A stretch of DNA of 64,000 bases from a virus, in the IMG/VR virus record IMGVR_UViG_3300045988_108221, positions 4,654-68,653 of that record; one strand, written 5' to 3'. Both the position numbers and the translations under genes were made by a program. This document shows, piece after piece, positions 443 to 61,062 of this stretch (position 1 is the first letter of the stretch; each line of letters opens with the position of its first letter). Under the pieces are notes generated by a model. The model was not told the origin of the DNA and made no database searches. It saw nothing but the letters and a program-made list of their open reading frames with translations.

Positions 443-781
443 TTAATGCATAGAAATGTCATGGATAATCTCAATATCACCCATGCAAACTTTATAGGAC
501 TTATCATCCTTGAGAAGAAACACATCGTATTTACCCTTGCGTATTCGTTCATCAATACCAAGAGTTGTATCATATCCAATTTGTACCAAGACTTGATTGC
601 CACTAATCGAACACATTGCCGTACACAAGACATTATTTTTCATGTCTCTGATTTTACATACCGCAGATGCATCATCTAGTGTAAAATCAGGGTTTTGACT
701 GTTGATGATATACAGACGTTCCCAATCAGCACCAGTATGTAATGTCTCAGGTACATCAATCACATAGTTGATATTAATCAC
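443..781 (-). CDS. hypothetical protein (distal tail module)
   Basis: 112-aa ORF, co-directional, overlaps the upstream gene by 8 nt; no motif recognised. Confidence 0.45.
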   Translation of the reverse strand: MININYVIDVPETLHTGADWERLYIINSQNPDFTLDDASAVCKIRDMKNNVLCTAMCSISGNQVLVQIGYDTTLGIDERIRKGKYDVFLLKDDKSYKVCMGDIEIIHDISMH

Positions 782-1274
782 CTGCCTTTATTATATTTAG
801 TACAACAGTTATCCACCCAGATATTGTATGCTCAAATGATGTGCTATTATTTTTACAATAAGCAATACCATCTGAGTTGATACCAACGAGATAGTCAGAG
901 CCACGATACAATGGGAACTCTGGAGGTTTAACAATCGCACCAACATTTGGAGAATTAAATCTGTCGTCTGCCATTTGGAATGATACGATTGTTGCCCTGT
1001 ATTTAGAACTTGGGTATTCTTCCGTGTAAACGGCATCCCCATGTTTAATTCTAAAGATTAAGGCTTGAGAAGAACCATTTGATGGATTCTGTGGTTCTTC
1101 TGGGTTAATCTCTGGTTGTTCAATCACATAAGGTTTAATCTCGCCGTTTACCAACTGAATTTCCCATGTGTTGTAGAACTGTTCTGTTTCAATGGCGGTT
1201 GTGCCATCTATGTGTACTTCAATTGGTGATGAACATACGCATAAACCAGTGTTGTTGTCAAATATATAGAACAT
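774..1274 (-). CDS. hypothetical protein (tail-tip module)
   Basis: ORF track gives 774..1331. I prefer ATG 1274 (MFYIFDNN..), which lies 5 nt after the stop of the J-like gene and behind GAAAGG. Confidence 0.5.
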   Translation of the reverse strand: MFYIFDNNTGLCVCSSPIEVHIDGTTAIETEQFYNTWEIQLVNGEIKPYVIEQPEINPEEPQNPSNGSSQALIFRIKHGDAVYTEEYPSSKYRATIVSFQMADDRFNSPNVGAIVKPPEFPLYRGSDYLVGINSDGIAYCKNNSTSFEHTISGWITVVLNIIKAGD

Positions 1275-1279
1275 ATGTT

Positions 1280-4200
1280 TTAACCTTTCTTGCCAATCAC
1301 AAGAACATAAAGAACACCTAAAGCAATCCATTCGGTGTCTCTGTCACCACGGTTGCTATAGTGAGTTGTTGTATTCCATGTACTTTCACATACAGCTTTT
1401 CTATTGTTAAGTCCAACAACACAGTTTAAATCTTTAGCTCCGTATTGAGAATAAATCCATGGTTGTTGACCTTGTAGATAAATAGTGCATCTCCCTATTT
1501 TTCGTTTATTGGCTACATCATATCTTTTTCTACCATCGTAATCGCCAGCGTTACTGTTGTATTTTTCTGTAAAATTATACCCAATAGGAACAAATGTACA
1601 TTCGTTAACACTATAGTTGCCAATCGTTGGAACATCTTGACCGTGAGCTACAGTAAGAATTGCATAGTCTATATTCTTAACTTTATAGCCAGAGTTATAT
1701 ATTGAATCAGCACTAATGGTTGAACCTGTAATATTCGCACCACGGATATTGCCATTTGGGTCTACAGAGAATGTTCCGTTGTCATTTTTAATGGTAGAGC
1801 TTACGATTGTACCACTATGGACATCCCCCAAGTTAGCACTAATGGCACTTAAGGAGTCAGCTTTAATTTTGTCAGCAGTTACTGCATTGGCTTGCAACAT
1901 TTTGTCTGTAATAATGTTGTCGTCAAACTTAGCTTGACCTGTAACATGAAGCAATCGACCATCAATCAATGTGCCTGCGGAAGACAAATTGATTTTCGAT
2001 ACCAGCTTGTCGCCTGTCAAGTTCTCTTCCACTTTAAGCTGGATTGCTTTTTCAGTCTGTGTTAACTGAGAGGACATTTCCGCTTTAGCATCGTCAATCT
2101 TCTTTTGTACAGTTGACGAGATACCATTCACGGTTTGAACCATTTGTGTTACACGACCATCAATAGCGTTAACTTGAGTTAGAATCCCATTCTTAGATTG
2201 TGTGATTTCAGACCGTAGTGTGTTTTCTGTATTAGAAATCTTGGTTGTGTTTGCGGTTACATCGTTCTTAATACCATCTACTTTATCACTAAGAGTAGAC
2301 ACAAAATCTTCAATCGTAGTCAACCCAAGAGCTTCTCTATCCAGCATTTCTGCATCAATAGTTGCTTTGACTTGGACTGTTTGCTCAGGAGAGAACTCAC
2401 CGAGTCCAAAGTAGTCTTCAAAGGCTACGGATACGTTATATAAACCGCCATCGCTATTGTAGACAAACAAAGGTTCTTTAGTTCTATAGTCTGTTCCGTC
2501 AATACGAACAACAGCTTCACAGCCTTTTGGTATAGCATTATAGTTTACTCTAAAAGATTGTAAGAATGATTTAATTGTCACGGATGGAGCGGTTGGTTTT
2601 GGTAGATTGTACCCATACTTAGTAGGAGCACTATAGACTTCCTCTGAATTGACTGCATAGACCCAAACAGTACCACTTCGACCAATTCGTGTTAAATCAA
2701 TCTCTCCGCTGATTTCAGATGTCATTAATAACAGATTATTCTCTGTAAGAGATTCAGATGAGCGTACCTCATATCGGTCTATATCAGCGGTTGTTACACG
2801 TTTCCACGAGATAGTTACACTCTCTTTTGTAAATCTAATGGTAACATTCTCTGGTGCAGATGGATTACCAATTTTTGGAACAATCGTATGTGTGTATGTT
2901 ACCATTGACTCTTCGTGTGGTAATTCTTTAGAATCATATGGTATAATTCTGAAATGAACTTTATCGTTTTTGTTTAAGCCAATCACAGGCATTATACCAT
3001 GGCTAACACCATAAACTTTCCAATCACCAAGTACACCATTGCGTTCAATCTGAACAGACACTTGTGAGTATCCATAGTTAACATCGTTTGGCTCTGTAAA
3101 CACAAGCATAGCATCATATGTTGGAATACCATTGACTTTTTGACGGTATACCTGTTCAACAGATACATTTTCTACAGGCTTAACAGTTTCTGGTAACAGA
3201 TTAATTTCTTTAGAATTATCACCTGTTGGAGCGAATACTTTTAAGGATGCACCAAATGCATCGTCGTAGATTGACGGATTGTATTGTTTAGCAGAGATTT
3301 CAAACGTACCGTCTTCTTCTTTCATCTCGACAATACGAACTTGTTGGTTTTCAAACAAGGTTTGTTTTTCGCCGTTTTCATCAATGTATGTTTTTGTGAT
3401 TGTAACGACATCGCCAGCTTCAAGATGAGAAGCCATAAGACCTGTCTTGAATGTGACAGTAATCGGACACAAACGAATAATGTCTCGTGCAATTTTCCCA
3501 AGTCGTAAACATTGCGTTTGTCTGCGGACACCTTTGAACTCAATGTCTTGCTCCACAGGACGACCAATACCAATCGGTGGTGGTAATTGGTTTGTCGCAT
3601 CTTCTACAATTAATTTAACCGCAGTATAATCCAATGCAGGTTCAACATAAGTCAAATTAAACTTGTTTGGACTTTGTTCAATAGATGCTCCTTTATAGGA
3701 TAAAGAGTTTTCAACGATATTGTCGTCATTAAATGCATATACAGGCGTTTCCAATCGTTCACACCGTAGCTTGATTTTATTGTTTGAAAACACAACGAAT
3801 CCAAGGAACGAATTTAATATTGACTGCATATTTTCTAAATGAGATTTTGTCTCATTAAGAATAATATCAAGTTCATATCGCTTTTCTGACTTGGTAACAC
3901 CATATGGGTCATTATATGTAATAACTTCATCGCAGTAGTTCGCAACATCCGTAAATGATTCCATGTCAAGAACATCTGGTGTAATATATTTACCAGCACC
4001 ATAAACATCGTTTGTTAAGTAATCATACAAACATACAGCTGGGTTTTTAGAGTATTCTGTCTTCCCTGTACGCCAATCATATACCTTGCGACCACGAACG
4101 ATAGCTGTAATTGTTGGATTTCCTGCACCCATTTTATCAGTATATCGCAAATCTGCAACCATATACGCAATATTTGGATAACCACCTGTAGTTTTATAAG

Positions 4201-5131
4201 TCGATGGAGCTTCAGCATCGTGTTGTCCATTGTATAAGATAACAGTACTGTCTTTTGCATCTTGCTCGCCGTTCGTGGTGAAGAAAACGTCTTTTTTATA
4301 ACATGGCAATACATCTGTTGTTTGTATTTTGTTTGGTGAGTCTTGACAGATAACAGGGTCAACAAGTTCCCATCCGTCTTTTTGTAAATCAGATAAATAT
4401 GTGTCGCCTAAGATAATTTGGTAGACTTTGCCAAAGGTATTACACGCAAGAGAATACTTGTCGTCAATCTTCGTGTTATCTTCGGTTAAGAAAATGTATG
4501 TTTCCTTACCGTTTGCCTTGAGTACTAACTTAGGGTATTTATTAAAGTCTTTATAGTCAATATCGTCTTGATAAATGGATTGTTGTGATGTAGATGGTAA
4601 TTGTACTAGACCTCTAAAGCCTTTAGACGGTGCAGAACCACCTGTAATTTGAGCGGTTGCATCTTGCCATTTATTGTTTCGGATGCCGAATATATTGACT
4701 TTCCTCGATACAGAGTTACCATCTTTAATAGGCAGTAAATATCCATTGGCAGTTGCACCGAAGAAACCATCAATTTCGCCCTCCCCAACGATAACATGCT
4801 TCAACAGTTTGCGACCGTTAACATCCATATGATGGTATGTTTGTAAACCACCAGCCTTAGACTGACCGTAAATAATTGGGATTGTACCCTCAGATGTTAC
4901 TTGGTTGTTCTTGGAGTCAAACGTAGACTCTGGTGTGCGGTTCTTTTGTTTGTCAAACAGACCACCAATGGCAGAACCGAGAGATAGACCATACATGGCT
5001 GCGGTAAATGCTTTTACACCACCAAGGAACGCCCATGGAGCACCAGCACCGAAACCAAAGGCGATAGCCGCAGCAAGTCCGAGGAACTTACCAACACGAC
5101 CTTTACCGCCTTTTCCTCCGCCTTTACCCAT
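1280..5131 (-). CDS. host-specificity / central tail fiber protein (lambda J-like)
   Basis: 1283 aa, follows the L-like gene. Gly-rich hydrophobic N-terminus, FN3-like segment (PSAPENVTIRFTKESVTISWKRV), coiled-coil and fiber-like C-terminal third. Confidence 0.8.
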   Translation of the reverse strand: MGKGGGKGGKGRVGKFLGLAAAIAFGFGAGAPWAFLGGVKAFTAAMYGLSLGSAIGGLFDKQKNRTPESTFDSKNNQVTSEGTIPIIYGQSKAGGLQTYHHMDVNGRKLLKHVIVGEGEIDGFFGATANGYLLPIKDGNSVSRKVNIFGIRNNKWQDATAQITGGSAPSKGFRGLVQLPSTSQQSIYQDDIDYKDFNKYPKLVLKANGKETYIFLTEDNTKIDDKYSLACNTFGKVYQIILGDTYLSDLQKDGWELVDPVICQDSPNKIQTTDVLPCYKKDVFFTTNGEQDAKDSTVILYNGQHDAEAPSTYKTTGGYPNIAYMVADLRYTDKMGAGNPTITAIVRGRKVYDWRTGKTEYSKNPAVCLYDYLTNDVYGAGKYITPDVLDMESFTDVANYCDEVITYNDPYGVTKSEKRYELDIILNETKSHLENMQSILNSFLGFVVFSNNKIKLRCERLETPVYAFNDDNIVENSLSYKGASIEQSPNKFNLTYVEPALDYTAVKLIVEDATNQLPPPIGIGRPVEQDIEFKGVRRQTQCLRLGKIARDIIRLCPITVTFKTGLMASHLEAGDVVTITKTYIDENGEKQTLFENQQVRIVEMKEEDGTFEISAKQYNPSIYDDAFGASLKVFAPTGDNSKEINLLPETVKPVENVSVEQVYRQKVNGIPTYDAMLVFTEPNDVNYGYSQVSVQIERNGVLGDWKVYGVSHGIMPVIGLNKNDKVHFRIIPYDSKELPHEESMVTYTHTIVPKIGNPSAPENVTIRFTKESVTISWKRVTTADIDRYEVRSSESLTENNLLLMTSEISGEIDLTRIGRSGTVWVYAVNSEEVYSAPTKYGYNLPKPTAPSVTIKSFLQSFRVNYNAIPKGCEAVVRIDGTDYRTKEPLFVYNSDGGLYNVSVAFEDYFGLGEFSPEQTVQVKATIDAEMLDREALGLTTIEDFVSTLSDKVDGIKNDVTANTTKISNTENTLRSEITQSKNGILTQVNAIDGRVTQMVQTVNGISSTVQKKIDDAKAEMSSQLTQTEKAIQLKVEENLTGDKLVSKINLSSAGTLIDGRLLHVTGQAKFDDNIITDKMLQANAVTADKIKADSLSAISANLGDVHSGTIVSSTIKNDNGTFSVDPNGNIRGANITGSTISADSIYNSGYKVKNIDYAILTVAHGQDVPTIGNYSVNECTFVPIGYNFTEKYNSNAGDYDGRKRYDVANKRKIGRCTIYLQGQQPWIYSQYGAKDLNCVVGLNNRKAVCESTWNTTTHYSNRGDRDTEWIALGVLYVLVIGKKG

Positions 5132-5145
5132 ATGTCACCTGCTTT

Positions 5146-5964
5146 CTATGTTCTTACCGTAAATTCAAATGGTACGGACAAGAATCCTGCATATCGTTTT
5201 TGATTGTTATGTCTCTTGCAGTCAGATGGAGTTTTATCACATCCAGCTTGCACCGTACATTGTTTATTTAATAAAAAGTTTGTCGCTTGTAATAGCGGAT
5301 ATTCTAACTTGACAGTCTTATTAGTTATAAAACCAACGATTTTTCTTGCTTCACCCTCAACAATTAATACTCCATTGGTATAATCTTGTTCGGATACAAC
5401 GGCATTTAATGTGACTTCATATCCATTGTTTGTTTGTTGAATGTTTGTAATCGTTGGGTTCATCTGCTTAACAACGGCTTTGCATGATGCATCGCCAAAT
5501 ACAGATGTACAAGAGTATTGCGACCTACGACCGCCACGCACGTTTGGAACATCGCTTGTGACTGTTACCTTAAAGATGCCGTCACTAGATAGTTCTGGTG
5601 AGTCAACTCGCCCCATGAACACAGGTTTAACCAATCGGTTATTCGCAAGTGACTCAGGATATAAGATTCTGTAGATATATATACGACTGCCTGTAAATGG
5701 AATACCCTTGAATAACAGTTGTGTAAATTTGTCGGTCGCATTAGAGATTTCTAACTCGCATGAGTCGATAGAACTATCAACGGTTTTATTAATTTCACCT
5801 CGGCGTATCGGCAACGCCAAGTATGTCTGACCGTTGAATTGTATATTTATATCACATGAGCATAAATATAATGTCATGTTTGGGATATGCACTTCGTATA
5901 ATTCGATGTCAAACACCGAACCGCTTTCCAAAGCATCACGAAATGCAACAGGTAGATTAATCAT
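5146..5964 (-). CDS. minor tail protein L-like (tail tip)
   Basis: 272 aa. The C-terminal Cys cluster GCDKTPSDCKRHNNQKRYAGFLSVP resembles lambda gpL CSKCLSGCKFRNNVGNFGGFLSI. Lies directly upstream of the J-like gene. Confidence 0.65.
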   Translation of the reverse strand: MINLPVAFRDALESGSVFDIELYEVHIPNMTLYLCSCDINIQFNGQTYLALPIRRGEINKTVDSSIDSCELEISNATDKFTQLLFKGIPFTGSRIYIYRILYPESLANNRLVKPVFMGRVDSPELSSDGIFKVTVTSDVPNVRGGRRSQYSCTSVFGDASCKAVVKQMNPTITNIQQTNNGYEVTLNAVVSEQDYTNGVLIVEGEARKIVGFITNKTVKLEYPLLQATNFLLNKQCTVQAGCDKTPSDCKRHNNQKRYAGFLSVPFEFTVRT

Positions 5965-21553: not shown

Positions 21554-22084
21554 ATGGCTAATACAACAGAACCAATTAGAAATCTATCAAAAGTCCAAGA
21601 AATGAAACAAGCACTAGGGAATGACCGAGATAAAATGTTGTTCACTCTTGGCATTAACTCTGGTCTCCGCATCAGCGACCTTGTCGGTCTCACAGTCGAT
21701 GATGTTAAACCAGAGATGGAATTGTATGAACAAAAGACAGGTAAGTTCAAACGGTTTATGTTATCTAAAGAGGTCTACGCATTGTTATGCGAATACGCAA
21801 GCCGATGCAAGCATTGGTTATTTCCAAGTCGCTCTGGTGACGGACATATCTCGACCGTACAAGCGTGGAGGAAAATCAAAGCTGCATCCGTGAAATGTGG
21901 TTTAGATAACATCGGTACGCACTCGATGCGTAAAACATTTGGATACCATGCGTATCGCAAAGGTGTACCGATTGCGTACCTTATGCAAGTCTTTAATCAT
22001 TCCTCGGAAGCAATCACAATGCGATACATTGGTATCACAACAGAGGAATTAAATACTAAAGTGTATGCCATTATGGCTTTATAA
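21554..22084 (+). CDS. minimal tyrosine recombinase (catalytic domain only)
   Basis: Start at ATG 21554 behind AGGAGG. Catalytic signature present: GLRISD (Arg), KTGKFK (Lys), HSMRKT (H..R), NHSSEAITMRY (His, Tyr). Only about 25 aa precede the catalytic domain. Confidence 0.8.
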   Translation: MANTTEPIRNLSKVQEMKQALGNDRDKMLFTLGINSGLRISDLVGLTVDDVKPEMELYEQKTGKFKRFMLSKEVYALLCEYASRCKHWLFPSRSGDGHISTVQAWRKIKAASVKCGLDNIGTHSMRKTFGYHAYRKGVPIAYLMQVFNHSSEAITMRYIGITTEELNTKVYAIMAL

Positions 22085-22354: not shown

Positions 22355-22371
22355 TCACAAAGTCTTTTAAA

Positions 22372-22422
22372 GGGCATACATAGGTTTATATCTTAGGATA
22401 TATTCTTATGTATGCCCTTTTT
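22372..22422 (+). terminator. terminator of the plus-strand cassette
   Basis: 11-bp stem GGGCATACATA / TATGTATGCCC (22372-22382 / 22407-22417) followed by TTTTT. The 24-nt loop carries an operator-like box. Confidence 0.65.
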
Positions 22423-22722
22423 GTGTTTCTTGGGTTACATCTGTATGTTTCATTTGTAGTCTCACACGTATGTTAACAGGTTTGGTCTCAAACACAATAT
22501 CTGACTATAAGGCAAACACGTTAGTGTTTATTGTCGAAGACAATCTTATAGGTTTAATACTTATGTATTCTTTAGAGTATTCCTTATAGATTGCTTCGCA
22601 ATATTCCTTACGGAATGTCTTTCAAGTCGGTTTCTTAAGTTTGGGGTAAAACCTTTTTCAAAAGCTGTTTCTTAAAACTCTTTCAAGAACGCACTTGCTT
22701 TCAAACCATAAGTTAAAACTCT

Positions 22723-22757
22723 CTCTACTTATAGGGTAAAACATTTGATTTTTGTAA
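22723..22757 (-). promoter_or_regulatory. 35-bp late-promoter-like element, copy R2
   Basis: Minus-strand TTACAAAAATCAAATGTTTTACCCTATAAGTAGAG. Points toward terS through the antisense strand of the recombinase cassette. Confidence 0.5.
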
Positions 22758-22939
22758 CACTTTTTTCTTAAAATTGGATAAATATTTTATTTTACATGGT
22801 AAAATTTACCCCTCAAAAATGCCACTCAGCTCAGTAAATATCTGTGTTTCAAGACTTGAAAAAATTTTTTCCAGTTTATGAGTAAAAAATGCCCCATAAG
22901 TCTTAAATCTATAAAATGCGATACAGGATTTTTAACTCG

Positions 22940-23234
22940 CATGGTACTAGGCTGGTGTCACACTCCTATGGTAGTGCTTGGGTTGGACGGCATCTGACCC
23001 ACATGGGATAAAATCGAACGAATGTACGTTGGTAAACACAACCATAGTATCGTGATGAATTTTCACAAGCACAACACTAGGGTCGTGATTTTGGATGGAA
23101 AATAGTTTGGCTGCGGCCTGTAGTTAGTCTGACTAAAAATAAAGCAATCACCATCCTATGATGGTGATTAACTATGTTGAAAAATATTGTCCAAACGATA
23201 CACAGTCCTAGTATTGCATCTCCCTAGTACCATG
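22940..23234. repeat. 12-bp perfect inverted repeat CATGGTACTAGG flanking a 271-bp segment
   Basis: CATGGTACTAGG at 22940-22951 and its reverse complement at 23223-23234. Part of a TACTAGG motif family (22945, 23207 inverted, 23223 inverted, 23257, 23293, 23744). Confidence 0.7.
23134..23169 (-). terminator. hairpin plus T-run in ORF-free DNA
   Basis: 10-bp stem AATCACCATC / GATGGTGATT (23146-23155 / 23160-23169), followed on the minus strand by GCTTTATTTTT. Confidence 0.45.
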
Positions 23235-23718
23235 TCACAAACTTATAATAACGCTATACTAGGAAAACATACATCAAAAAACATAATCATCATACTAGGG
23301 TTTACATATTATAGAAAATCATAAGTTACCTTGTATGCAACCCTAAAAATTTCTACAAAAATTTTAAACGATTGTATATTCGATAGACAACTCAAATTGG
23401 AAAATACGATTGTTCCATATGATGTTTCATATCTTAGACAATCTATTGAAACGATTGTTTTATCGATAGTATTTGCGATTGTTTTCTACATATGTTATGT
23501 GTTTAAATGTATGAAACCATAGATAAAACATGGGTTTGTAGACCATTGTATGGTGTGTTTTGTATATAGCCATTGTTTGTACTGGGGTATGTTTCTTATG
23601 TGTGGACTTAGGTATGCTCTTGGGTTTGTTATGATTATACCGCCCCCAGCTGAGAATGGTTCTCCCTTTTGGATATTGAAAATTTTCGATACGCTTAGGG
23701 GTGTCTCATTGGTTCATA

Positions 23719-23732
23719 TGAACATATGTTCA
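23719..23732. promoter_or_regulatory. 14-bp perfect palindrome TGAACATATGTTCA (GAAC-N4-GTTC core)
   Basis: Read directly; flanked by further CATATG half-sites (23715-23740). Confidence 0.6.
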
Positions 23733-24377
23733 CATATGCACCATACTAGGGTTAGTCAATCAATCGAATAGTATCAATGTAATAGAATATCTAATTGCTT
23801 ACATTCATTATCACTTGTATTCTCAATATGTAGATGTCATATATTGAAAACTATCGATATATATGTTTGTACATAGAGTATTCGTTCATGTATCAACTAA
23901 CGGTTTACAGTTGGGTAACATATGAGTAGATACTCATGTATGCACTATATGCATTATACCTATGATTTTAAGTAATGTTTAATATTGGTCTTGGCTGGCG
24001 GTGGTTGTAAAATTGTATTTTACACAATGTTTTTTATTTGGGTACATCAATAAGGGTTCAAAATTCTGTAGTATCACTCGCCTAAGTCAATGCCATTGTA
24101 CACCCTACGTACACTACCAAAGTACAACCACATCACAATACAATACGTTTATACATCTGTTACATACATGAGTAATACATATGTATAAAACAAATAAAAA
24201 TACAACGATATACAACGATTGTATATAACAGATATATTTACCGTTGTATGCTCATTTGTATTCGTTGCATATGTTTATATTCGAACGAGATTAAACGCAC
24301 CGTATAACTCAAATAAATCAATCGTTTATTCTCATTTAGTCGTGCGTATTGATAACGCCTGCGTTATGTGTAGCATA

Positions 24378-24391
24378 TGAACATACGTTCA
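24378..24391. promoter_or_regulatory. palindrome TGAACATACGTTCA (GAAC-N4-GTTC core)
   Basis: Read directly; one mismatch from the 23719 copy. Confidence 0.55.
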
Positions 24392-24440
24392 TATGTTATG
24401 TTTGTATGAATGGTTGTTTATATATTGAATATAAATATAA

Positions 24441-24465
24441 GCGGTACAGAAATGATCTGTACCGC
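24441..24465 (-). terminator. GCGGTAC-stem hairpin after gene 24476..24736
   Basis: 10-bp stem GCGGTACAGA / TCTGTACCGC with a 5-nt loop. The downstream T-run on the minus strand is weak. Confidence 0.45.
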
Positions 24466-24475
24466 TTGTTATTGT

Positions 24476-27748: not shown

Positions 27749-27899
27749 AGGCTACACCCTTTCGATTAAATATATAACCTTTTCTATGGTCTTATTGTAC
27801 CGCTTAGTAGGTGCAATGTACAATAGTTTTTATCTATGGTTGCCATAGTTTTAAGCTATGGCGGTACACCATTGAATACCGCTATACAATAGATATATA

Positions 27900-27928: not shown

Positions 27929-28259
27929 ATTTTAGCAAAAACCAAGCGTAAATGAGAATGTCTCTCAATAAAACGTTTAAATATTTGCGTTCTAAGGTCT
28001 GTCTAAAGTCTCCGCCTTATGATTGTATGCAAAAAGTCAAAAACGCCGTACAACGCAAATAAATCAATTCTAGAGGTATTGTCTAAATGAGAATGACGGT
28101 GGTATCTTTTGTATGCATACATAAGTTATGAATTTGTTTGTCTACAATAGACACCGTTGTATATCGAATGTTTTCTATATGTTATTAACAAATATAATCA
28201 TTATTGACTAATAGCTAAAATTTTCGATATGGTTTACGCAGGCGGTGGTCGTGCAATAT

Positions 28260-28457
28260 GGTTGTATGCAATCGAATTTCACGCAACGGTTTTTCATCTG
28301 AATATATGTTCATATGTTCACACATCGGTTATATGAATAAGTTTTCATATGAACATACATTCATTTGAAAACATATGAATATATGCTCATGTATTCATTT
28401 ATTGAACACATGAAAGTATGTTCAATTATTCATATGTTATAATCGGTTGTATGCAAT
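28260..28457. repeat. CATATG-palindrome array bracketed by 13-bp direct repeats
   Basis: GGTTGTATGCAAT at 28260-28272 and 28445-28457. Between them are 4 CATATG sites (28311, 28346, 28372, 28431) inside TTCATATGAA / GAACATA..TTC-type palindromes. Confidence 0.7.
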
Positions 28458-28636
28458 TTAATTGTGGTATCTCGCAGGATTTACCGTATTGAGAATATTT
28501 CTCATTTAAGCTGCGGTATATTGTGATGTCTTCTATAGGCGTACACATTCATATGTTTTGTACATAAAAACAAACAAACGCAAAAACACGCAAAAAGTCA
28601 TATATCATAAAATCGTGTATTTTCGCTTGTATGCTC

Positions 28637-28810
28637 GTTTAGGTGTTTTATGTACAATCATAAACGGAACATCTGAAAACTGCCGTATAACTCAAATAAC
28701 GCAACTTTTATTTGAGAACAATTATCAAATACGCTGGCTTTTCTCATTTGTAGTATCTAATTGAGAATACGATGGTAAAACAAAAGGCGGTATACCTTAA
28801 GTATACCGCC
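28637..28810. repeat. non-coding repeat module, copy B
   Basis: Paralog of 24973-25176 (see that entry). Confidence 0.65.
28777..28810 (-). terminator. rho-independent terminator
   Basis: 10-bp stem GGCGGTATAC / GTATACCGCC (28786-28795 / 28801-28810), followed on the minus strand by TTTTGTTTT. Confidence 0.75.
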
Positions 28811-28816
28811 AATGGT

Positions 28817-28918
28817 TTATAGGTCTTCTAGTCCCTCTTCTAAGTCTTTTTTATAATCTTCATCTACGTTATCAAGTAGCGCCTTAATATATTCTTGTTC
28901 AACGATAAAATAAAACAT
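28817..28918 (-). CDS. possible 33-aa acidic peptide
   Basis: MFYFIVEQEYIKALLDNVDEDYKKDLEEGLEDL, with GGAGGA 10 nt upstream and a terminator directly downstream. Confidence 0.35.
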   Translation of the reverse strand: MFYFIVEQEYIKALLDNVDEDYKKDLEEGLEDL

Positions 28919-28987
28919 AAGTTGATCATCCTCCGTTATTATTAAGTGCTTAAAGCGTTGGCGGTACATAAGTACCGCCGTTAGTGT

Positions 28988-29281
28988 TTATCTGAGTGGC
29001 TTTTCATCGTGTAGTATGATTTTGGCAACTCGCCAATTATATTGGCTTAAGTTTACCATGTATTCACTACCGCTTTTTGTACTACCGATTAGGCTTGAAT
29101 GTTTTTCGCCATCAAAATAATCACAAATTGTGGTGGTTTGATAGATACGCTCATTCAATGGATACACTTTAGACCAATTAGATTTACTATATTCAATCTC
29201 AATCAAATAAGGCTTTTTTAATAAATATCTGTGTTCCTCTAGGTAGTCAACTAATTTTGATAAACTAGAAAATTCTTTCAT
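28988..29281 (-). CDS. hypothetical protein (AT-rich cassette)
   Basis: Start moved to ATG 29281 (MKEFSSLSKLVDYLEE..) behind GAAAGGGG; 97 aa. Confidence 0.55.
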   Translation of the reverse strand: MKEFSSLSKLVDYLEEHRYLLKKPYLIEIEYSKSNWSKVYPLNERIYQTTTICDYFDGEKHSSLIGSTKSGSEYMVNLSQYNWRVAKIILHDEKPLR

Positions 29282-29486
29282 GAGTTTTACCCCTTTCAAT
29301 ATAAAATTATAAAAGACCTACGAAAGACATTTATCATCTTTCGTTACACTCATTATACACCTAGAGGGGCAATCTGCATAATAGAAAAAATCTATGGATA
29401 GTCATAACTTTAAGCTATGGCGGATAACCGCACTCCGCAGGATTTATCCATACAATTCTATTGTGTACAACTGAATTTTACGCCGT

Positions 29487-29600
29487 CATATGAATATGTG
29501 CTCATATGTTCATGTATCGTTACATGAATGTCTGTTCATATGAACAACTGTTCAGATGACAACACATGAACGAATGTTCATATGTTCAAACGCTCATATG
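29487..29600. repeat. second CATATG-palindrome array
   Basis: 5 CATATG sites in 114 bp (29487, 29503, 29537, 29579, 29595). GAAC-N4-GTTC cores at 29542-29553 and 29568-29579. Flanks resemble those of the 28260-28457 array (CAATCGAATT..). Confidence 0.7.
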
Positions 29601-29785
29601 ATTGAATACAATCGAATTGCATGAGACTATATCGAAAGTTTTCACGCTTTAATCATCTAAAGTATTCGAACTGATTGAAAAAATTCGATTAGTTGCAGGA
29701 TTTTCGATATACTGCACATCGAAAATTTTCGACCTTTAGTATACTAAAGTTTTCGATTAGATGGAAAATTTTGAATATATTAAAG

Positions 29786-29799
29786 TGAACAAATGTTCG
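29786..29799. promoter_or_regulatory. palindrome TGAACAAATGTTCG (GAAC-N4-GTTC core)
   Basis: Read directly. Confidence 0.5.
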
Positions 29800-29859
29800 C
29801 TGGTTGCAGGCGGTCTCGCAGGTCGTGGCGAGCACATGGGCGGTCAATATGTAATGCCT

Positions 29860-30400
29860 TGAAAAAACACACATATGTATTAATATATGAGCGTATATAT
29901 GTATAAAAATAGGGGTGAGATATATATGTATATATACATATATAAAATACCGTGGACATATACATATAAATATATACAAATGTAAAAATCCGTGGACAAT
30001 ATCATATATATAAACAATAAAAACCACCGCAGAATTGATTTAAATCGTTTATACGGTGTGTTTATATCCACGGTGGTATATTTGTATACCACATATGTGA
30101 AAACCACCGTACAATGCAAATAAATGAATTTCATGAGATGATGTGGTCGTATGAACATATGTTCAATCATGGGTATTGCCACGTGGTATCATGGAAGATT
30201 AAAAACAAACAAATGTTCGGTTGTTTTTCTCTTAGGCAGCATCCGTGGTTCGTCAATAGAATACCCCATGAACACACCATAATACACACCAATAGATAAA
30301 CACATATATCATCGACACATATATACGTTTGTTTAATACCACGATATATATAAATAAAAAAATACCACCGCATAAAACGTGGACACATAACGAACGTATA
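29860..30400. repeat. AT-rich (ATATAC/TATATA) block with short iterons; origin-like
   Basis: CCGTGGACA at 29950 and 29990, ACGTGGACA at 30377. ACCACCGY at 30023, 30103, 30364 and inverted at 30070. TATATA/ATATAC runs between them. Confidence 0.5.
30152..30165. promoter_or_regulatory. second perfect copy of TGAACATATGTTCA
   Basis: Identical to 23719-23732. Confidence 0.6.
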
Positions 30401-40695: not shown

Positions 40696-42126
40696 TTATT
40701 TACTTAATAGATTTTCTAGCATTTCTACACGCTCTTTTAAGTCTTTTAACTCATCTCGTTTAACATTCGTTGTTTTACCAACTTTAAAGTTAACAGATGC
40801 ATTAGTCACCTTGGCAGAGCCAAAAGATTGTCCAACGTAGAACATTACATTTTCATTCGGAGCGTAGAACGCACCCAATGCACCAGCGTTTGCATTTTTG
40901 TAATGACCGAAGCCAGCACTAAAAGACAGTTTGTTGTTCACATCGAAACCATCCCAATGTAATGCACTCAAGGCAGATACAGATGCAATCGCTTTGTTTG
41001 TGCCACGTTCTAATTGATTGATTTTATTATCGAAGTTACCAAACATTTGTTGACTTTGATTTTCCAAAGTAATAATTCGGTTTTCATGGTTCATAGACAA
41101 TTGTTTTAACGCTGAAATATCGCCTGTGTGAGCGTTTTGGATGTCTCGTAATGTATTTACTTGTGCACTAACATTTGTGATGGATTGATGGTTCTCATTA
41201 ATTAATGCGGTATTAGAACGAATGTCTGCTGTATTGGTTCGCACTTGTTTTTGGGTTTCGACAATCGCATCTGCATTAGTGGCTACATATGTATGCAACT
41301 CATCAATGGCATCTTTGTTTGTTTTGATGTTGATTCCATTAGTATTGATTTCATCAATAGCTGCATGCAACTGAGAACCATTGACTGCATCTATAGAGTC
41401 AGAATCAATACGTCCAGCGGCTACATTCGTAATAGTTCGTTCCTTGCCTGTGTCGCCAATAGATATAGTACCTGCTGGGACAACACCAGCAAATGTATGC
41501 GTTTTGCCATTAATTACGGAAGAAGAAGTACCAATTACTACACTAGCTTTCGCATTATGTCCGATTGCTACGGATTCATCTTGGGTTACAGAAGCATCGT
41601 TACCAATAGCAATACCATAGTTAGCATGGTTGATTGTGCTAGATTTGCCTAAAATAATTCCGTGATAACTGTCTTGTAGTATATTTCTATTGCCAAGCAA
41701 TACATCGCCTGTAGAGTTGCCTGTGTGATTTTCCACATTATTAAAAGCACCGATTAGAACAGAATCCTTTGTAGCACCATGGTTAATATTGCCAATGTTA
41801 ACTGCATCATTCCCATCTGTAGTAAGTCCATAACCAATAGCTATGGAGGTCGTACTATTGGCATGAACTCCATTACCGATAGCAATAGTATTAATATTGT
41901 GTGCACCAACTCCATTGCCGATTGCGATGGCATTTGTGTTAGCAGTAACACCGTTGCCAAGACCAATGCTATTATTGCTTGTGTTGATTACTCCGTTACC
42001 AACTGCAACACTATTATCTTGAGCAGCAATAACACCATTGCCAAACTCCACTGGGTTTGCAAACACGCCCATAGTTGCCATTGCTAATACTGCGGATAAA
42101 ATTGTTGTTTTCATTTTGTTGTTCAT
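40696..42126 (-). CDS. trimeric autotransporter adhesin (YadA-like)
   Basis: Signal peptide MNNKMKTTILSAVLAMATMGVFA. About 12 head repeats of the S.A.G.G / NS.AIG type. Neck ERTITNVAAGRIDSDSIDAVNGSQLHA, about 120-aa coiled-coil stalk. C-terminal anchor ALSALHWDG..LSFSAGFGHYKNANAGALGAFYAPNENVMFYVGQSFG. Confidence 0.85.
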   Translation of the reverse strand: MNNKMKTTILSAVLAMATMGVFANPVEFGNGVIAAQDNSVAVGNGVINTSNNSIGLGNGVTANTNAIAIGNGVGAHNINTIAIGNGVHANSTTSIAIGYGLTTDGNDAVNIGNINHGATKDSVLIGAFNNVENHTGNSTGDVLLGNRNILQDSYHGIILGKSSTINHANYGIAIGNDASVTQDESVAIGHNAKASVVIGTSSSVINGKTHTFAGVVPAGTISIGDTGKERTITNVAAGRIDSDSIDAVNGSQLHAAIDEINTNGINIKTNKDAIDELHTYVATNADAIVETQKQVRTNTADIRSNTALINENHQSITNVSAQVNTLRDIQNAHTGDISALKQLSMNHENRIITLENQSQQMFGNFDNKINQLERGTNKAIASVSALSALHWDGFDVNNKLSFSAGFGHYKNANAGALGAFYAPNENVMFYVGQSFGSAKVTNASVNFKVGKTTNVKRDELKDLKERVEMLENLLSK

Positions 42127-42147: not shown

Positions 42148-42405
42148 TTACAAAGTTTTGTTTAATTGTTTAAAATAATCCAATACGTCTTCTTTTGTTT
42201 TCTTTTTAATTAGATTAATGTCCGTGGTTGTCCAATCGGCACTTGTGAGACACTTAGCATCAATAGATTTTAACCGTTTATGCCATTGGTCGGTACAAAC
42301 GTAAATCACACCTCGTTTCATCCGTAGACATTGCGATGTGTTCCAATGGTGTCTTCGAATGCCCTTGCCGTTTGACATCAATTCGTATGCTTCGTGGAAT
42401 CGCAT
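42148..42405 (-). CDS. DUF2829 / Tad2-like protein
   Basis: Start moved to ATG 42405 behind AAAGGAGA. MRFHEAYELMSNGKGIRRHHW fits the DUF2829 N-terminal pattern F.EA...M..GK.IRR..W. Also has the C-terminal ..ADW.. motif; 85 aa. Confidence 0.5.
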   Translation of the reverse strand: MRFHEAYELMSNGKGIRRHHWNTSQCLRMKRGVIYVCTDQWHKRLKSIDAKCLTSADWTTTDINLIKKKTKEDVLDYFKQLNKTL

Positions 42406-42578
42406 TTGCAACTCTTCTCCTTTCTTGGGAATAAACATAAGACTACAACACTTAATAGCATTGCCCCAAGCCATTCTTGGTTATTGAATATAAATGTTTG
42501 AATGAATGAACCACCCATCAGTAATAAACATGAGATGTCAATCATTCGTCTAATGTCAAGAATTAATTGTTTGTCCAT
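42378..42578 (-). CDS. small membrane protein
   Basis: CAGGAGG SD; two hydrophobic segments; 66 aa. Confidence 0.5.
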   Translation of the reverse strand: MDKQLILDIRRMIDISCLLLMGGSFIQTFIFNNQEWLGAMLLSVVVLCLFPRKEKSCKCDSTKHTN

Positions 42579-44540: not shown

Positions 44541-45354
44541 CTGCCTTTCGCAAGTGTTCTAATTCAAGAACACGGTCGATGTGGTCGTGTACTCTCATTT
44601 GTTTTTTATTGCGTTCTCCACTAAGCTCAACAATGGATGTACCACAATCGTTTGGGCGATAACCCTTGTCTGCGGAATAACCGCCCCAACCAAGGAATGA
44701 ACCTGTTTGGACATCCAAGTGTTCAATTAAAGACCAAGCCTTGGCAATACGGTTTGGTTCTGCCACCATGGTGCGTTCATACGTTGTCTTATGTAGATGC
44801 TCGTAGAACGTAATATCGGTATGTAGCCATTCCATTTTATCAGGTTTCTTTGAATTGTGCCATGTGCCAATAACATACAAGTTTTTATTGACATTAAAGA
44901 ATACCGATGCCATACCATGGTAGAATGGAACGCCCAACAGTTCAGCTAACATTTGCTCTGGGATTAAACGGTTATGTTTCAACGCTCGTTCATATCCATG
45001 GTTGCCACTTCGGCAGAACAAAATACGGTCTTTAATCGGTTCTAACAAGCGATATGCCGTAAGAACTTGGTCTCCACCGTGCTCAGATTGTTCAAATACC
45101 GATGATGCGGACGATGTGGTTGCATTATCCGTAGAGTCACCACCGATAATCAAATACAGATTGTCAATCGTTTTGACTTGAGAAATGAACTTCTCAAAGG
45201 CTTCACGATTGTGATAGATGTTACCGACATGGATATCAGATATGTCAGCAATATATGCTCGTTCCGACTCCACTCGAACATCCAATTTATTTACATTTAA
45301 GGACTGTTCAGCAATATTCAAATTCGTTTCTCCATATCTTTCAAACGTGTACAT
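44512..45354 (-). CDS. calcineurin-like metallophosphoesterase
   Basis: DISDIHVGN, GGDSTDN and GNHGYE motifs in canonical order. Confidence 0.75.
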   Translation of the reverse strand: MYTFERYGETNLNIAEQSLNVNKLDVRVESERAYIADISDIHVGNIYHNREAFEKFISQVKTIDNLYLIIGGDSTDNATTSSASSVFEQSEHGGDQVLTAYRLLEPIKDRILFCRSGNHGYERALKHNRLIPEQMLAELLGVPFYHGMASVFFNVNKNLYVIGTWHNSKKPDKMEWLHTDITFYEHLHKTTYERTMVAEPNRIAKAWSLIEHLDVQTGSFLGWGGYSADKGYRPNDCGTSIVELSGERNKKQMRVHDHIDRVLELEHLRKAVEHAKETKQ

Positions 45355-45971
45355 TGGTTGCCACAGAAATTACAAATGGTTTGGTTATCACCGAATGACC
45401 CATCCAGATATTCAACCGCTTTACAAGTAGTCATAGGTCTTTGTTCTCCAGCATATTTGTACATGCGTTTAAATGTTTGTCTTGCAGAGTCAAACGGATA
45501 GTTAACCTTGATGGTTGGTGTCTTTGCTTCGTAATGTCTAATACTTGGTCTCAAGACATCCTCATCAAGAACACCATTGTCAATTAAGTCTTTAAGTACT
45601 GCTTGAGCAATACCCAATGACTTCTTGAGTCTTCTTGAGGTCAACATTTTGTATTCACCAAATTGTTTGGCAATGTCGCTAACTTTCATTCGTAAGCCAT
45701 AACGCATCATAAGTCGTTTCATACAACTACTACCGACTTCTTTTCTAAGTCGCAAGAACGCATACATCAACTCTTTGATTTCTTCTTGTTCAATCAAGAT
45801 GTCCTCTGGTGAGCGTTCGTAATCAAAATCCCTGTAACGTTTCATCTTGCGTACCAATTTCTTTGATATTCGCTCTTGGTCGAACTCTTTAAAAGACATA
45901 CGGTTATCAAACTCGTGTATCTTAAAGAGTTCATCCGAATTAGAGCAAAAGAACTCCATTAATTTATTCAT
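45318..45971 (-). CDS. sigma-factor region-4-like / HTH transcription regulator (putative)
   Basis: RLMMRYGLRMKVSDIAKQFGEYKMLTSRRLKKSLGIAQAVLKDL resembles sigma70 region 4. C-terminal CNFCGNQC. Confidence 0.35.
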   Translation of the reverse strand: MNKLMEFFCSNSDELFKIHEFDNRMSFKEFDQERISKKLVRKMKRYRDFDYERSPEDILIEQEEIKELMYAFLRLRKEVGSSCMKRLMMRYGLRMKVSDIAKQFGEYKMLTSRRLKKSLGIAQAVLKDLIDNGVLDEDVLRPSIRHYEAKTPTIKVNYPFDSARQTFKRMYKYAGEQRPMTTCKAVEYLDGSFGDNQTICNFCGNQCTRLKDMEKRI

Positions 45972-60501: not shown

Positions 60502-60655
60502 GTTTTGTTCCTCCTGTCGGTCTAATAGTTTGTTTCTGACTTGTTGTACCATCATTATATCACACCTGTATTACCAAGTCAAGAAAGTTTTGTCTGACTA
60601 AGAAAAATACAATCGGCTTGCCGATTATTGCGAAGCAATTCATATGGTTTGTCGT

Positions 60656-60696
60656 ATAACTTATGTATTCGAACGTAGTGAGAATACATAAGTTAT
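60656..60696. repeat. 15-bp perfect inverted repeat (hairpin) built on the ACTTATGTATTC box
   Basis: ATAACTTATGTATTC (60656-60670), 11-nt loop, GAATACATAAGTTAT (60682-60696). Confidence 0.7.
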
Positions 60697-61012
60697 CAAA
60701 CAAGTATTCCACTACTGTATGAATACCTTAAGTAGAAAAACAGAGAGTGAAAACATATGTATAGGGAACTTGTGTATTAAGACCATTGTTTTAAATCAAA
60801 GGTATGAATAACCAATGTATTCATACCAATGTTTTAATCCAAAAGTATTCAAACACAAGTATACTTATGTATTAATTCTAAGGTATATTCTTATGTATTA
60901 ATACTAAGGTTTGATAGGGTATCACAAAAGTTTAAATTTGTCAAGGATAAATCTCACACTTTTACATAAAATTTTAGACAAAAATACAACATTGTTTGAA
61001 CGCCAAAATACC

Positions 61013-61050
61013 CAAGCCGTATTTGACTTGGGTTGATTTTGGTTCTCAAT
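61013..61050 (-). terminator. terminator-like hairpin after ssb
   Basis: ACCCAAG / CTTGGGT stem (61020-61026 / 61037-61043), followed on the minus strand by ATTTTGG. Confidence 0.5.
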
Positions 61051-61062
61051 ATTTGGTTTTAA

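Follow-up and report, generated by a model that had tools for sequence, protein, structure and literature searches.

Two paralogous arrays of short palindromes, referred to as array 1 and array 2, are real and selected clusters of operator dyads within a hypervariable control region of a tailed phage. The window analyzed here is the whole 64,000-nucleotide stretch of the IMG/VR virus record IMGVR_UViG_3300045988_108221 (positions 4,654 to 68,653), which represents most of a genome of about 67.8 kb. The arrays sit in an 8-kb stretch (22.36-30.7 kb) with a GC content of 26-34% that is mosaic among relatives and contains three non-coding blocks of 1-2 kb each (22.36-24.47, 27.76-28.80, and 29.30-30.70 kb). 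Independent gene calling in relatives places no genes in these three blocks either. The comparison set comprises about 45 related metagenomic genomes. Judged from sequence, the arrays are best read as operator clusters for a dimeric repressor, most likely the LexA protein of the host, a reading to which a probability of roughly 0.4 is assigned.

The coordinates given for both arrays in a preliminary description of the window are all borne out on re-reading the sequence. The 172-bp block of array 1 holds four copies of CATATG (28311, 28346, 28372, and 28431), and array 2 holds five within 114 bp (29487, 29503, 29537, 29579, and 29595). The background of one CATATG per 4 kb assumed at that stage is an understatement, since the window has 63 copies compared with 28 expected from shuffles. 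Measured against the window's own rate, the probability of at least four copies in 172 bp is 1.7e-5 and that of at least five in 114 bp is 6e-8. Half-sites TGAACA/TGTTCA, counted with at most one mismatch, occur in an 8/16-bp register 14 times in array 1 (28291-28432) and nine times in array 2 (29491-29588), whereas no more than four phased half-sites are reached in 100 first-order Markov resimulations of the window with the same dinucleotide frequencies. The proposal of deliberate multi-site palindrome arrays is thus upheld: the clustering exceeds chance, and relatives retain the motif despite turnover of the sequence inside the units and between them.

Over more than 200 bp, including the flanks, the plus strand of array 1 can be aligned to array 2 in reverse complement. 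Hence, the arrays are inverted paralogues, in agreement with the paralogy suggested earlier. Their start-to-start dyad spacings match, with 35, 16, 26, and 35 bp in array 1 and 34, 16, and 26 bp in array 2. Array 1 is bracketed by an exact 13-bp direct repeat, which is a copy of the recurrent near-palindrome TTGTATRCAA (motif B), and the flanks of array 2 are confirmed to be related to it. The coordinates of these and all other features are collected in Table 1.

Table 1. Coordinates of the arrays, the single dyads, and other features of the window. ORF, open reading frame; motif B, near-palindrome TTGTATRCAA.
Feature	Position	Strand	Description
Array 1	28291-28444		five 16-bp dyads ATGAAy-N4-rTTCAT starting at 28298, 28333, 28349, 28375, and 28410; GC 24%
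Array 2	29487-29602		four dyads starting at 29490, 29524, 29540, and 29566
Array 1, left flank	28260-28272	plus	GGTTGTATGCAAT, motif B
Array 1, right flank	28445-28457	plus	GGTTGTATGCAAT, motif B
Array 2, left flank	29460-29477	plus	ATTGTGTACAACTGAATT, motif B
Array 2, right flank	29600-29618	plus	GATTGAATACAATCGAATT, motif B
Mini-array	23707-23740		three phased half-sites including a perfect GAACATATGTTC; position kept in relatives
Isolated dyad	24374-24397		CATATGAACATACGTTCATATG; positionally conserved; N4 varies in orthologues
Site X	29785-29800		GTGAACAAATGTTCGC; some orthologues are canonical LexA boxes (L100, TCGAACATCTGTTCGC; L028, GCGAACAGATGTTCGA)
Isolated dyad	30148-30169		CGTATGAACATATGTTCAATCA; orthologous dyad in relatives directly follows a terminator
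Site Y	30206-30219	minus	CGAACATTTGTTTG; LexA-box-like with one core mismatch; kept in L034
Cassette between arrays	28786-29284	minus	98-aa ORF 29284-28988; small acidic ORF 28918-28817; terminator 28810-28786
Inferred cassette promoter	29352-29380	minus	-35 TATGCA 29380-29375, 17-bp spacer, -10 TATAAT 29357-29352; by inspection
Promoter-like site TTGACT-18-TATGGT	28204-28233	plus	conserved; reads into array 1; spacer carries motif C (AAAATTTTCGA)
Cluster of motif C palindromes (GAAAAyTTTCGA)	29626-29780		adjoins array 2; kept in relatives
Structural and packaging genes	1-21.4 kb		
Small tyrosine recombinase	21554-22084	plus	176-185 aa, catalytic domain only
Nucleotide-metabolism and replication genes	37-61.7 kb		ThyX, dUTPase, RusA, DnaB-like helicase, primase, SSB
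YadA-like trimeric autotransporter adhesin gene	40696-42126	minus	
Adjoining small ORF	42148-42474	minus	weak Thoeris anti-defence Tad2-like match
DnaE-type polymerase	from 61795	rightward	

The repeat unit is the hexamer TGAACA or its complement TGTTCA with a period of 8 bp. Pairs of hexamers form dyads of 16-22 bp, (CAT)ATGAAC-N4-GTTCAT(ATG), and neighboring dyads share half-sites, creating an 8-bp lattice. Half-site distances within the arrays peak at 8 and 16 bp, and phase slips of 2-3 bp move the peaks to 26-27 and 34-35 bp. CATATG is herein the junction between adjacent hexamers, meaning that TTCATATGAA dyads and GAAC-N4-GTTC dyads are two registers of one lattice. The CATATG-centered dyads of the preliminary description therefore survive as a lattice register, but the dyad under constraint, as seen from isolated and positionally conserved sites, is ATGAAC-N4-GTTCAT. 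When every GAA-N6-TTC site of the variable regions is counted without bias, the consensus is ATATGAACAT|ATGTTCATAT; the base before GAAC is T in 83% of the counted sites and C in 5%, and position 4 of GAAC is C in 59% and T in 31%. Six of the window's eight perfect GAAC-N4-GTTC cores lie within 23.7-30.2 kb (0.23 expected; P about 1.5e-7) and two in the other 57.5 kb, with the array dyads carrying 0-2 core mismatches.

In addition to the arrays, the motif occurs as five single sites or mini-arrays within the 8-kb low-GC region. Among relatives, these sites keep their positions with GAAC and GTTC invariant, while their flanks often vary, and the central 4 bp of orthologous sites read ATAT, ATAC, AAAT, ATGT, ACGT, GCAT, AGAT, and others. 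Because the outer GAAC/GTTC is fixed and the center is free, the pattern bears the signature of a 16-20-bp dyad that would be read by a dimeric protein; neither two equal 8-bp boxes nor a reader of CATATG fits it.

Single dyads stay in place among relatives, and the arrays expand, shrink, or vanish (0-18 half-sites), always between copies of TTGTATRCAA. The flanking repeats noted earlier are real in this respect as well, marking the exact boundaries of array gain and loss. A non-coding block of about 950 bp around array 1 is conserved in eight relatives, with the flanks better kept than the array, which varies by whole units. The range is best appreciated in six genomes with an identical integrase, in which array 1 counts 0 (L102), 7 plus a separate run of 3 (L101), 10 (L100), 17 (L103), or 18 (L098 and L099) phased half-sites. 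In five of these six genomes, array 2 consists of two dyads 35 bp apart, and none was found there in L099. Absence of the arrays beside conserved flanking genes had been named beforehand as an argument against them, and such absence is found in part: L102 is without array 1; L034 is without array 2, carrying a single copy of ATTGTRTACAAyyGAATT in place of repeat-array-repeat; and L013, L017, and L027 have complete variable regions without either array, yet keep two or three single dyads. This loss makes the arrays accessory and leaves the single dyads as the conserved core.

The two arrays enclose a small cassette. In the closest relatives, it is replaced by unrelated genes of 88, 59, and 95 aa, while promoter, leader, and arrays stay; hence, the arrays are part of a conserved platform from which swappable cassettes are expressed. 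Since this exchange occurs among near-identical genomes, it follows that the cassette does not encode the array binder, and no DNA-binding domain was found in the cassette genes. The inferred cassette promoter retains in relatives a perfect TATAAT -10 and a downstream hairpin leader, with a spacer of variable sequence. Array 2 lies at about -140 to -255 from this promoter, and the array downstream of the promoter-like site at 28204-28233 at +50 to +200.

Since GAAC-N4-GTTC is the SOS (LexA) box of Bacillota and no phage repressor is recognizable, the binder would most likely be the LexA protein of the host, Veillonella. No helix-turn-helix, ribbon-helix-helix (RHH), or S24 regulator was found by Pfam among about 75 ORFs, namely the window's main ORFs and five ORFs of the relative L058 from the gap between window end and start. 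Likewise, neither Pfam on this set nor PHROGs on 20 window ORFs returned a regulator, initiator, or partition protein, and phmmer with approximate LexA query sequences found no LexA homologue in the phage. The LexA consensus of B. subtilis is CGAACATATGTTCG (PMC8270828). SPbeta sites with a/t at the outer positions, instead of the consensus C/G, bind LexA with a Kd in the nM range (PMC8270828). GIL01, a phage without its own repressor, is silenced by host LexA on tandem boxes, and its gp7 helps to hold weak boxes (PMC6182141). LexA transcripts of V. parvula have been reported (PMC6052428); a literature search on the Veillonella SOS box and on Veillonella phages yielded nothing usable.

The arrays resemble the paired LexA boxes of the B. 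subtilis phage SPbeta and the tandem dinBoxes of the B. thuringiensis phage GIL01 in the GAAC-N4-GTTC core with ATAT as its best center, in having several boxes per control region, in placing weak boxes beside strong ones, and, as in GIL01, in the apparent lack of an own repressor. They differ by forming clusters of 4-7 dyads on an 8-bp lattice with hypervariable copy number, by outer T/A and a conservation of about 20 bp, and by their location upstream and downstream of promoters as opposed to over them; moreover, as LexA boxes the sites described here are putative. The outer C/G is carried by site Y and by orthologues of site X (CGAAC/GTTCG). With lambda OL/OR, the arrays share the arrangement of two inverted paralogous dyad clusters about 1-2 kb apart that bracket a small gene unit, a geometry suited to looping. 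Unlike in the lambda immunity region, however, the bracketed genes are swapped between relatives and are devoid of a DNA-binding domain, which means that no repressor is encoded between the clusters.

If host LexA is the binder, repressor dimers would sit on both inverted clusters and on the single dyads scattered through the three non-coding stretches, with neighboring dimers 16 or 26 bp apart on opposite helix faces and possibly assisted by a small phage cofactor, as gp7 does in GIL01. The bound dimers would silence the promoter platform that drives the swappable cassette of genes without assigned function, either by an upstream/downstream roadblock or through a loop spanning the 1.2 kb that separates the clusters. 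This repression would be lifted on DNA damage, when RecA stimulates the cleavage of LexA. Array length would herein set the tightness and cooperativity of the hold on the platform and would drift by unit gain and loss between the TTGTATRCAA repeats.

Several observations weigh against host LexA. Its link to the dyads is by way of a Veillonella specificity deduced from other Bacillota, T/A and not C/G flank GAAC/GTTC in array-type dyads, and the dyads are conserved over about 20 bp, more than a canonical SOS box spans. The orientation of half-sites in the arrays is nearly unbiased (51 direct, 37 inverted, and 24 everted), and a recurrent third half-site (><<) is not explained by a simple LexA dimer. 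Clusters of 4-7 dyads at 50-250 bp from the nearest promoter-like sites are an unusual geometry for LexA, and the arrays are dispensable in some relatives. Finally, comparable TGAACA arrays with an 8-bp period are present in phages of Proteobacteria, a group with a different LexA box, which implies that other proteins also use the 8-bp lattice.

Part of these points can equally be appreciated as support for the most serious rival, in which the operator architecture is the same but the binder is an unrecognized phage-encoded dimeric regulator among the core ORFs without assigned function. Its half-site ATGAAC would overlap or mimic the host SOS box, and it would time the expression of the accessory cassette in infection. 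The 20-22-bp conservation with T/A flanks, the recurring ><< triplets, and the comparable arrays in unrelated phages would all be accommodated, as would the variable region of L035, a Veillonella prophage relative at 64% TerL identity from which the motif and its arrays are absent; in addition, most phage ORFs have no recognizable family. However, the ORF scan detected no DNA-binding domain, the orthologues of sites X and Y are canonical CGAAC/GTTCG boxes without the ATG/CAT flanks, and a chance match to both core and spacing of the host SOS box is unlikely. A phage regulator ranks behind LexA and ahead of replication iterons. A ribbon-helix-helix-type protein that forms a nucleoprotein filament on tandem 8-bp boxes (ATGWWCAT), serving as silencer or partition site, is very unlikely. 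Precedents for this type of binding are the MetJ metboxes, the omega repressor heptads, and the ParR/ParG centromeres. Metboxes and omega heptads alike are head-to-tail boxes of 7-8 bp in mixed orientation and variable number, and the arrays, too, have contiguous boxes at an 8-bp period, in mixed orientation and varying in number. Here, by contrast, neither Pfam nor a small-ORF scan revealed an RHH, ParA, or ParM gene, and isolated sites have free inner halves and fixed outer parts, so the constraint fits one 16-bp dyad and not two equal boxes. Among other host regulators, Rex was rejected by inspection for its spacing and CcpA for the missing central CG of a cre site. The ARG box shares TGAAy-N4-rTTCA, but the isolated sites keep C/G at position 5, and the spacing of 16, 26, and 35 bp is, by inspection, not the 21 bp expected for ArgR.

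A different function altogether would be that of replication-origin iterons of the phage P4 ori/crr or plasmid incC/incA type, in which an initiator would bind and pair the two repeat clusters and the AT-rich palindromes would melt, perhaps aided by the conserved upstream promoter. The P4 type-1 iterons GGTGAACA/TGTTCACC share the hexamer in both orientations, and P4 ori/crr (bound by the alpha primase-helicase) and P1/F incC-incA likewise comprise two separated clusters, one of which is dispensable or variable. Consistent with an origin, the arrays are AT-rich (24-34% GC), and both of their strands have a strong propensity to form hairpins or cruciforms (z -4 to -5.8). Likewise, the promoter-like site is directed toward array 1, array 2 has GC-rich patches and an AT-rich tandem repeat as neighbors, and genes for DnaE, a DnaB-like helicase, a primase, and an SSB are present in the phage itself. 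This explanation is nevertheless improbable. Near-identical genomes are without arrays or have only two dyads, which speaks against a cis requirement across relatives, the arrays and the replication genes are more than 22 kb apart, and there is no enrichment of DnaA boxes. The P4 octamer TGTTCACC recurs at 9-11 bp, whereas the period here is 8 bp, and only TGTTCA is shared, the last two bases being TA/NN. An alpha-type binding domain is missing: when P4 alpha and its C-terminal 130 aa were compared with all window ORFs by phmmer, the best E-value of the C-terminal part was 0.7, and otherwise weak primase similarity was seen. A literature text search for TGTTCACC returned primer sequences only. 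Moreover, a better candidate lies at 60.6-61.06 kb, inside the replication module and at the GC-skew minimum. Here, a 450-bp non-coding stretch (60600-61060) between the SSB gene and the next genes contains a 26-bp tandem repeat, inverted repeats of 22 and 43 nt, and repeated CTTATGTATT/GAATACAT motifs, and it is a plausible replication origin. A role as overlapping weak promoters in both directions or as RNA hairpin elements in leader transcripts is very unlikely. By inspection, TGAACA-N16-TATGWW matches about 8 of 12 positions of the sigma-70 consensus, and promoter-like sites are located upstream of both arrays, which fold well. However, a sigma-70 scan of the 8.5-kb region gave 57 sites compared with 63 expected, with one marginal site at the edge of an array (29585-29612), and the conserved -10 of the cassette promoter lies outside array 2; the switchable bidirectional promoters of the preliminary description are therefore not retained. 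Regarding RNA, mismatches in the dyad arms are uncompensated, without a strand bias of G-T versus A-C (own tally, five array-1 dyads), unit indels do not keep pairing intact, and no Rfam match was obtained. Together, this favors recognition of the arrays as DNA over an RNA element.

Similar lattices are seen outside the lineage. Unrelated IMG/VR contigs of 26-66% GC carry 8-bp-phased TGAACA/TGTTCA arrays (L036, L037, L046, L040/L047/L049/L050, L055, and L056); L046 has two of them 1.8 kb apart around two ORFs, and in Ralstonia-phage-like contigs they stand directly upstream of terS-terL. The lattices of unrelated phages, whose hosts are probably Proteobacteria, adjoin a CI-like repressor, Erf and ParA, or precede terminase genes, and no common family was found among the adjoining proteins. 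Because the array-bearing contigs include relatives of Ralstonia and Moraxella phages, this recurrence was discarded as evidence for LexA. It is rather doubtful, though less so than replication iterons, that the arrays of degenerate LexA boxes act as an SOS-sensing silencer or LexA sink scaling with phage copy number, or that the 8-bp TGWWCA lattice is an undescribed, orientation-indifferent binding module common to unrelated phages of Bacillota and Proteobacteria.

The element class as such is known; new are the 8-bp lattice, its scale, its copy-number plasticity, and the apparent lack of a phage repressor. The phage lineage is very common in human metagenomes, and its host genus is an oral and gut genus that is poorly studied. 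If host LexA binds the arrays, a large tailed phage would have coupled a platform for swappable accessory genes to the SOS response while lacking its own repressor, and the GIL01 paradigm would extend beyond tectiviruses. The span of 0-18 half-sites among near-identical genomes represents a natural titration series for operator number versus repression.

The control region contains further elements. The stretch 22360-24470 comprises 2.1 kb without a credible ORF. Close relatives keep it at 85-91%, and it ends at a terminator on the minus strand (23170-23145). A long non-coding transcript is one possible role, and a packaging/attachment region adjoining the recombinase gene is another. An element of about 34 nt, AAAACGCCGTAyAAC.CAAATAAATCAAT, occurs in four copies (24290, 28036, 28673, and 30097), often accompanied by TTCTCATTT/AAATGAGAA hairpin motifs in both orientations. 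It is kept at 86-94% identity in relatives with genes about 70-76% identical and could represent a factor-specific promoter or sites of RNA-RNA pairing. The segments 27797-27871 and 29385-29450 are paralogous copies of a conserved element with CCATAG...CTATGG hairpins directly upstream of minus-strand cassette promoters; a tRNA-Lys called by ARAGORN at 27797-27871 was not confirmed by Rfam. At the head of the 27751-25184 operon, the palindrome ATTGTAC-N18-GTACAAT (27786-27815) forms a promoter-like pair TTGTAC-18-TACAAT on both strands, and the array-flanking TTGTATRCAA resembles fused halves of this pair. Between array 2 and the next dyad lies a very AT-rich tract of alternating purines and pyrimidines (29860-30030) with a 40-bp tandem repeat at 29930-30012.

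Nearly all genes of the window lie on the minus strand. The approximately 3.8 kb between window end and start, read in one relative, contain the rest of DnaE and the lysis genes. No close annotated phage relative was found by megablast, and terminase matches among annotated phages are all below 60% identity, those listed being at 33-36%. Dozens of contigs of 63-72 kb in IMG/VR and ENA belong to the lineage, which originates from human samples. Veillonella is the likely host, as suggested by the prophage relative L035 in Veillonella sp. 3310, the window GC of 38%, and the human samples. In the equivalent variable region of L035 (positions 600-5200), each small-gene cassette has its own copy of an 83-nt element, six in all, that carries a consensus TTGACA-17-TATAAT promoter. 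The exact recombinase protein of the window is recorded in 453 assembly blocks and never on a contig larger than 200 kb, which suggests that members of the lineage are rarely if ever found integrated, even though one distant relative is a prophage. A 217-aa protein (45318-45971, minus strand) contains a stretch, LMMRYGLRMKVSDIAKQFG...SRRLKKSLGIAQAVLKDL, that resembles sigma-70 region 4 and, after it, a C-terminal CxxC...C motif. The protein lacks a relative in the PDB, and its only Pfam match is a weak one to KorB, an identity that was rejected in favor of the closer resemblance to sigma region 4. Hence, it may be a phage sigma-like or late regulator.

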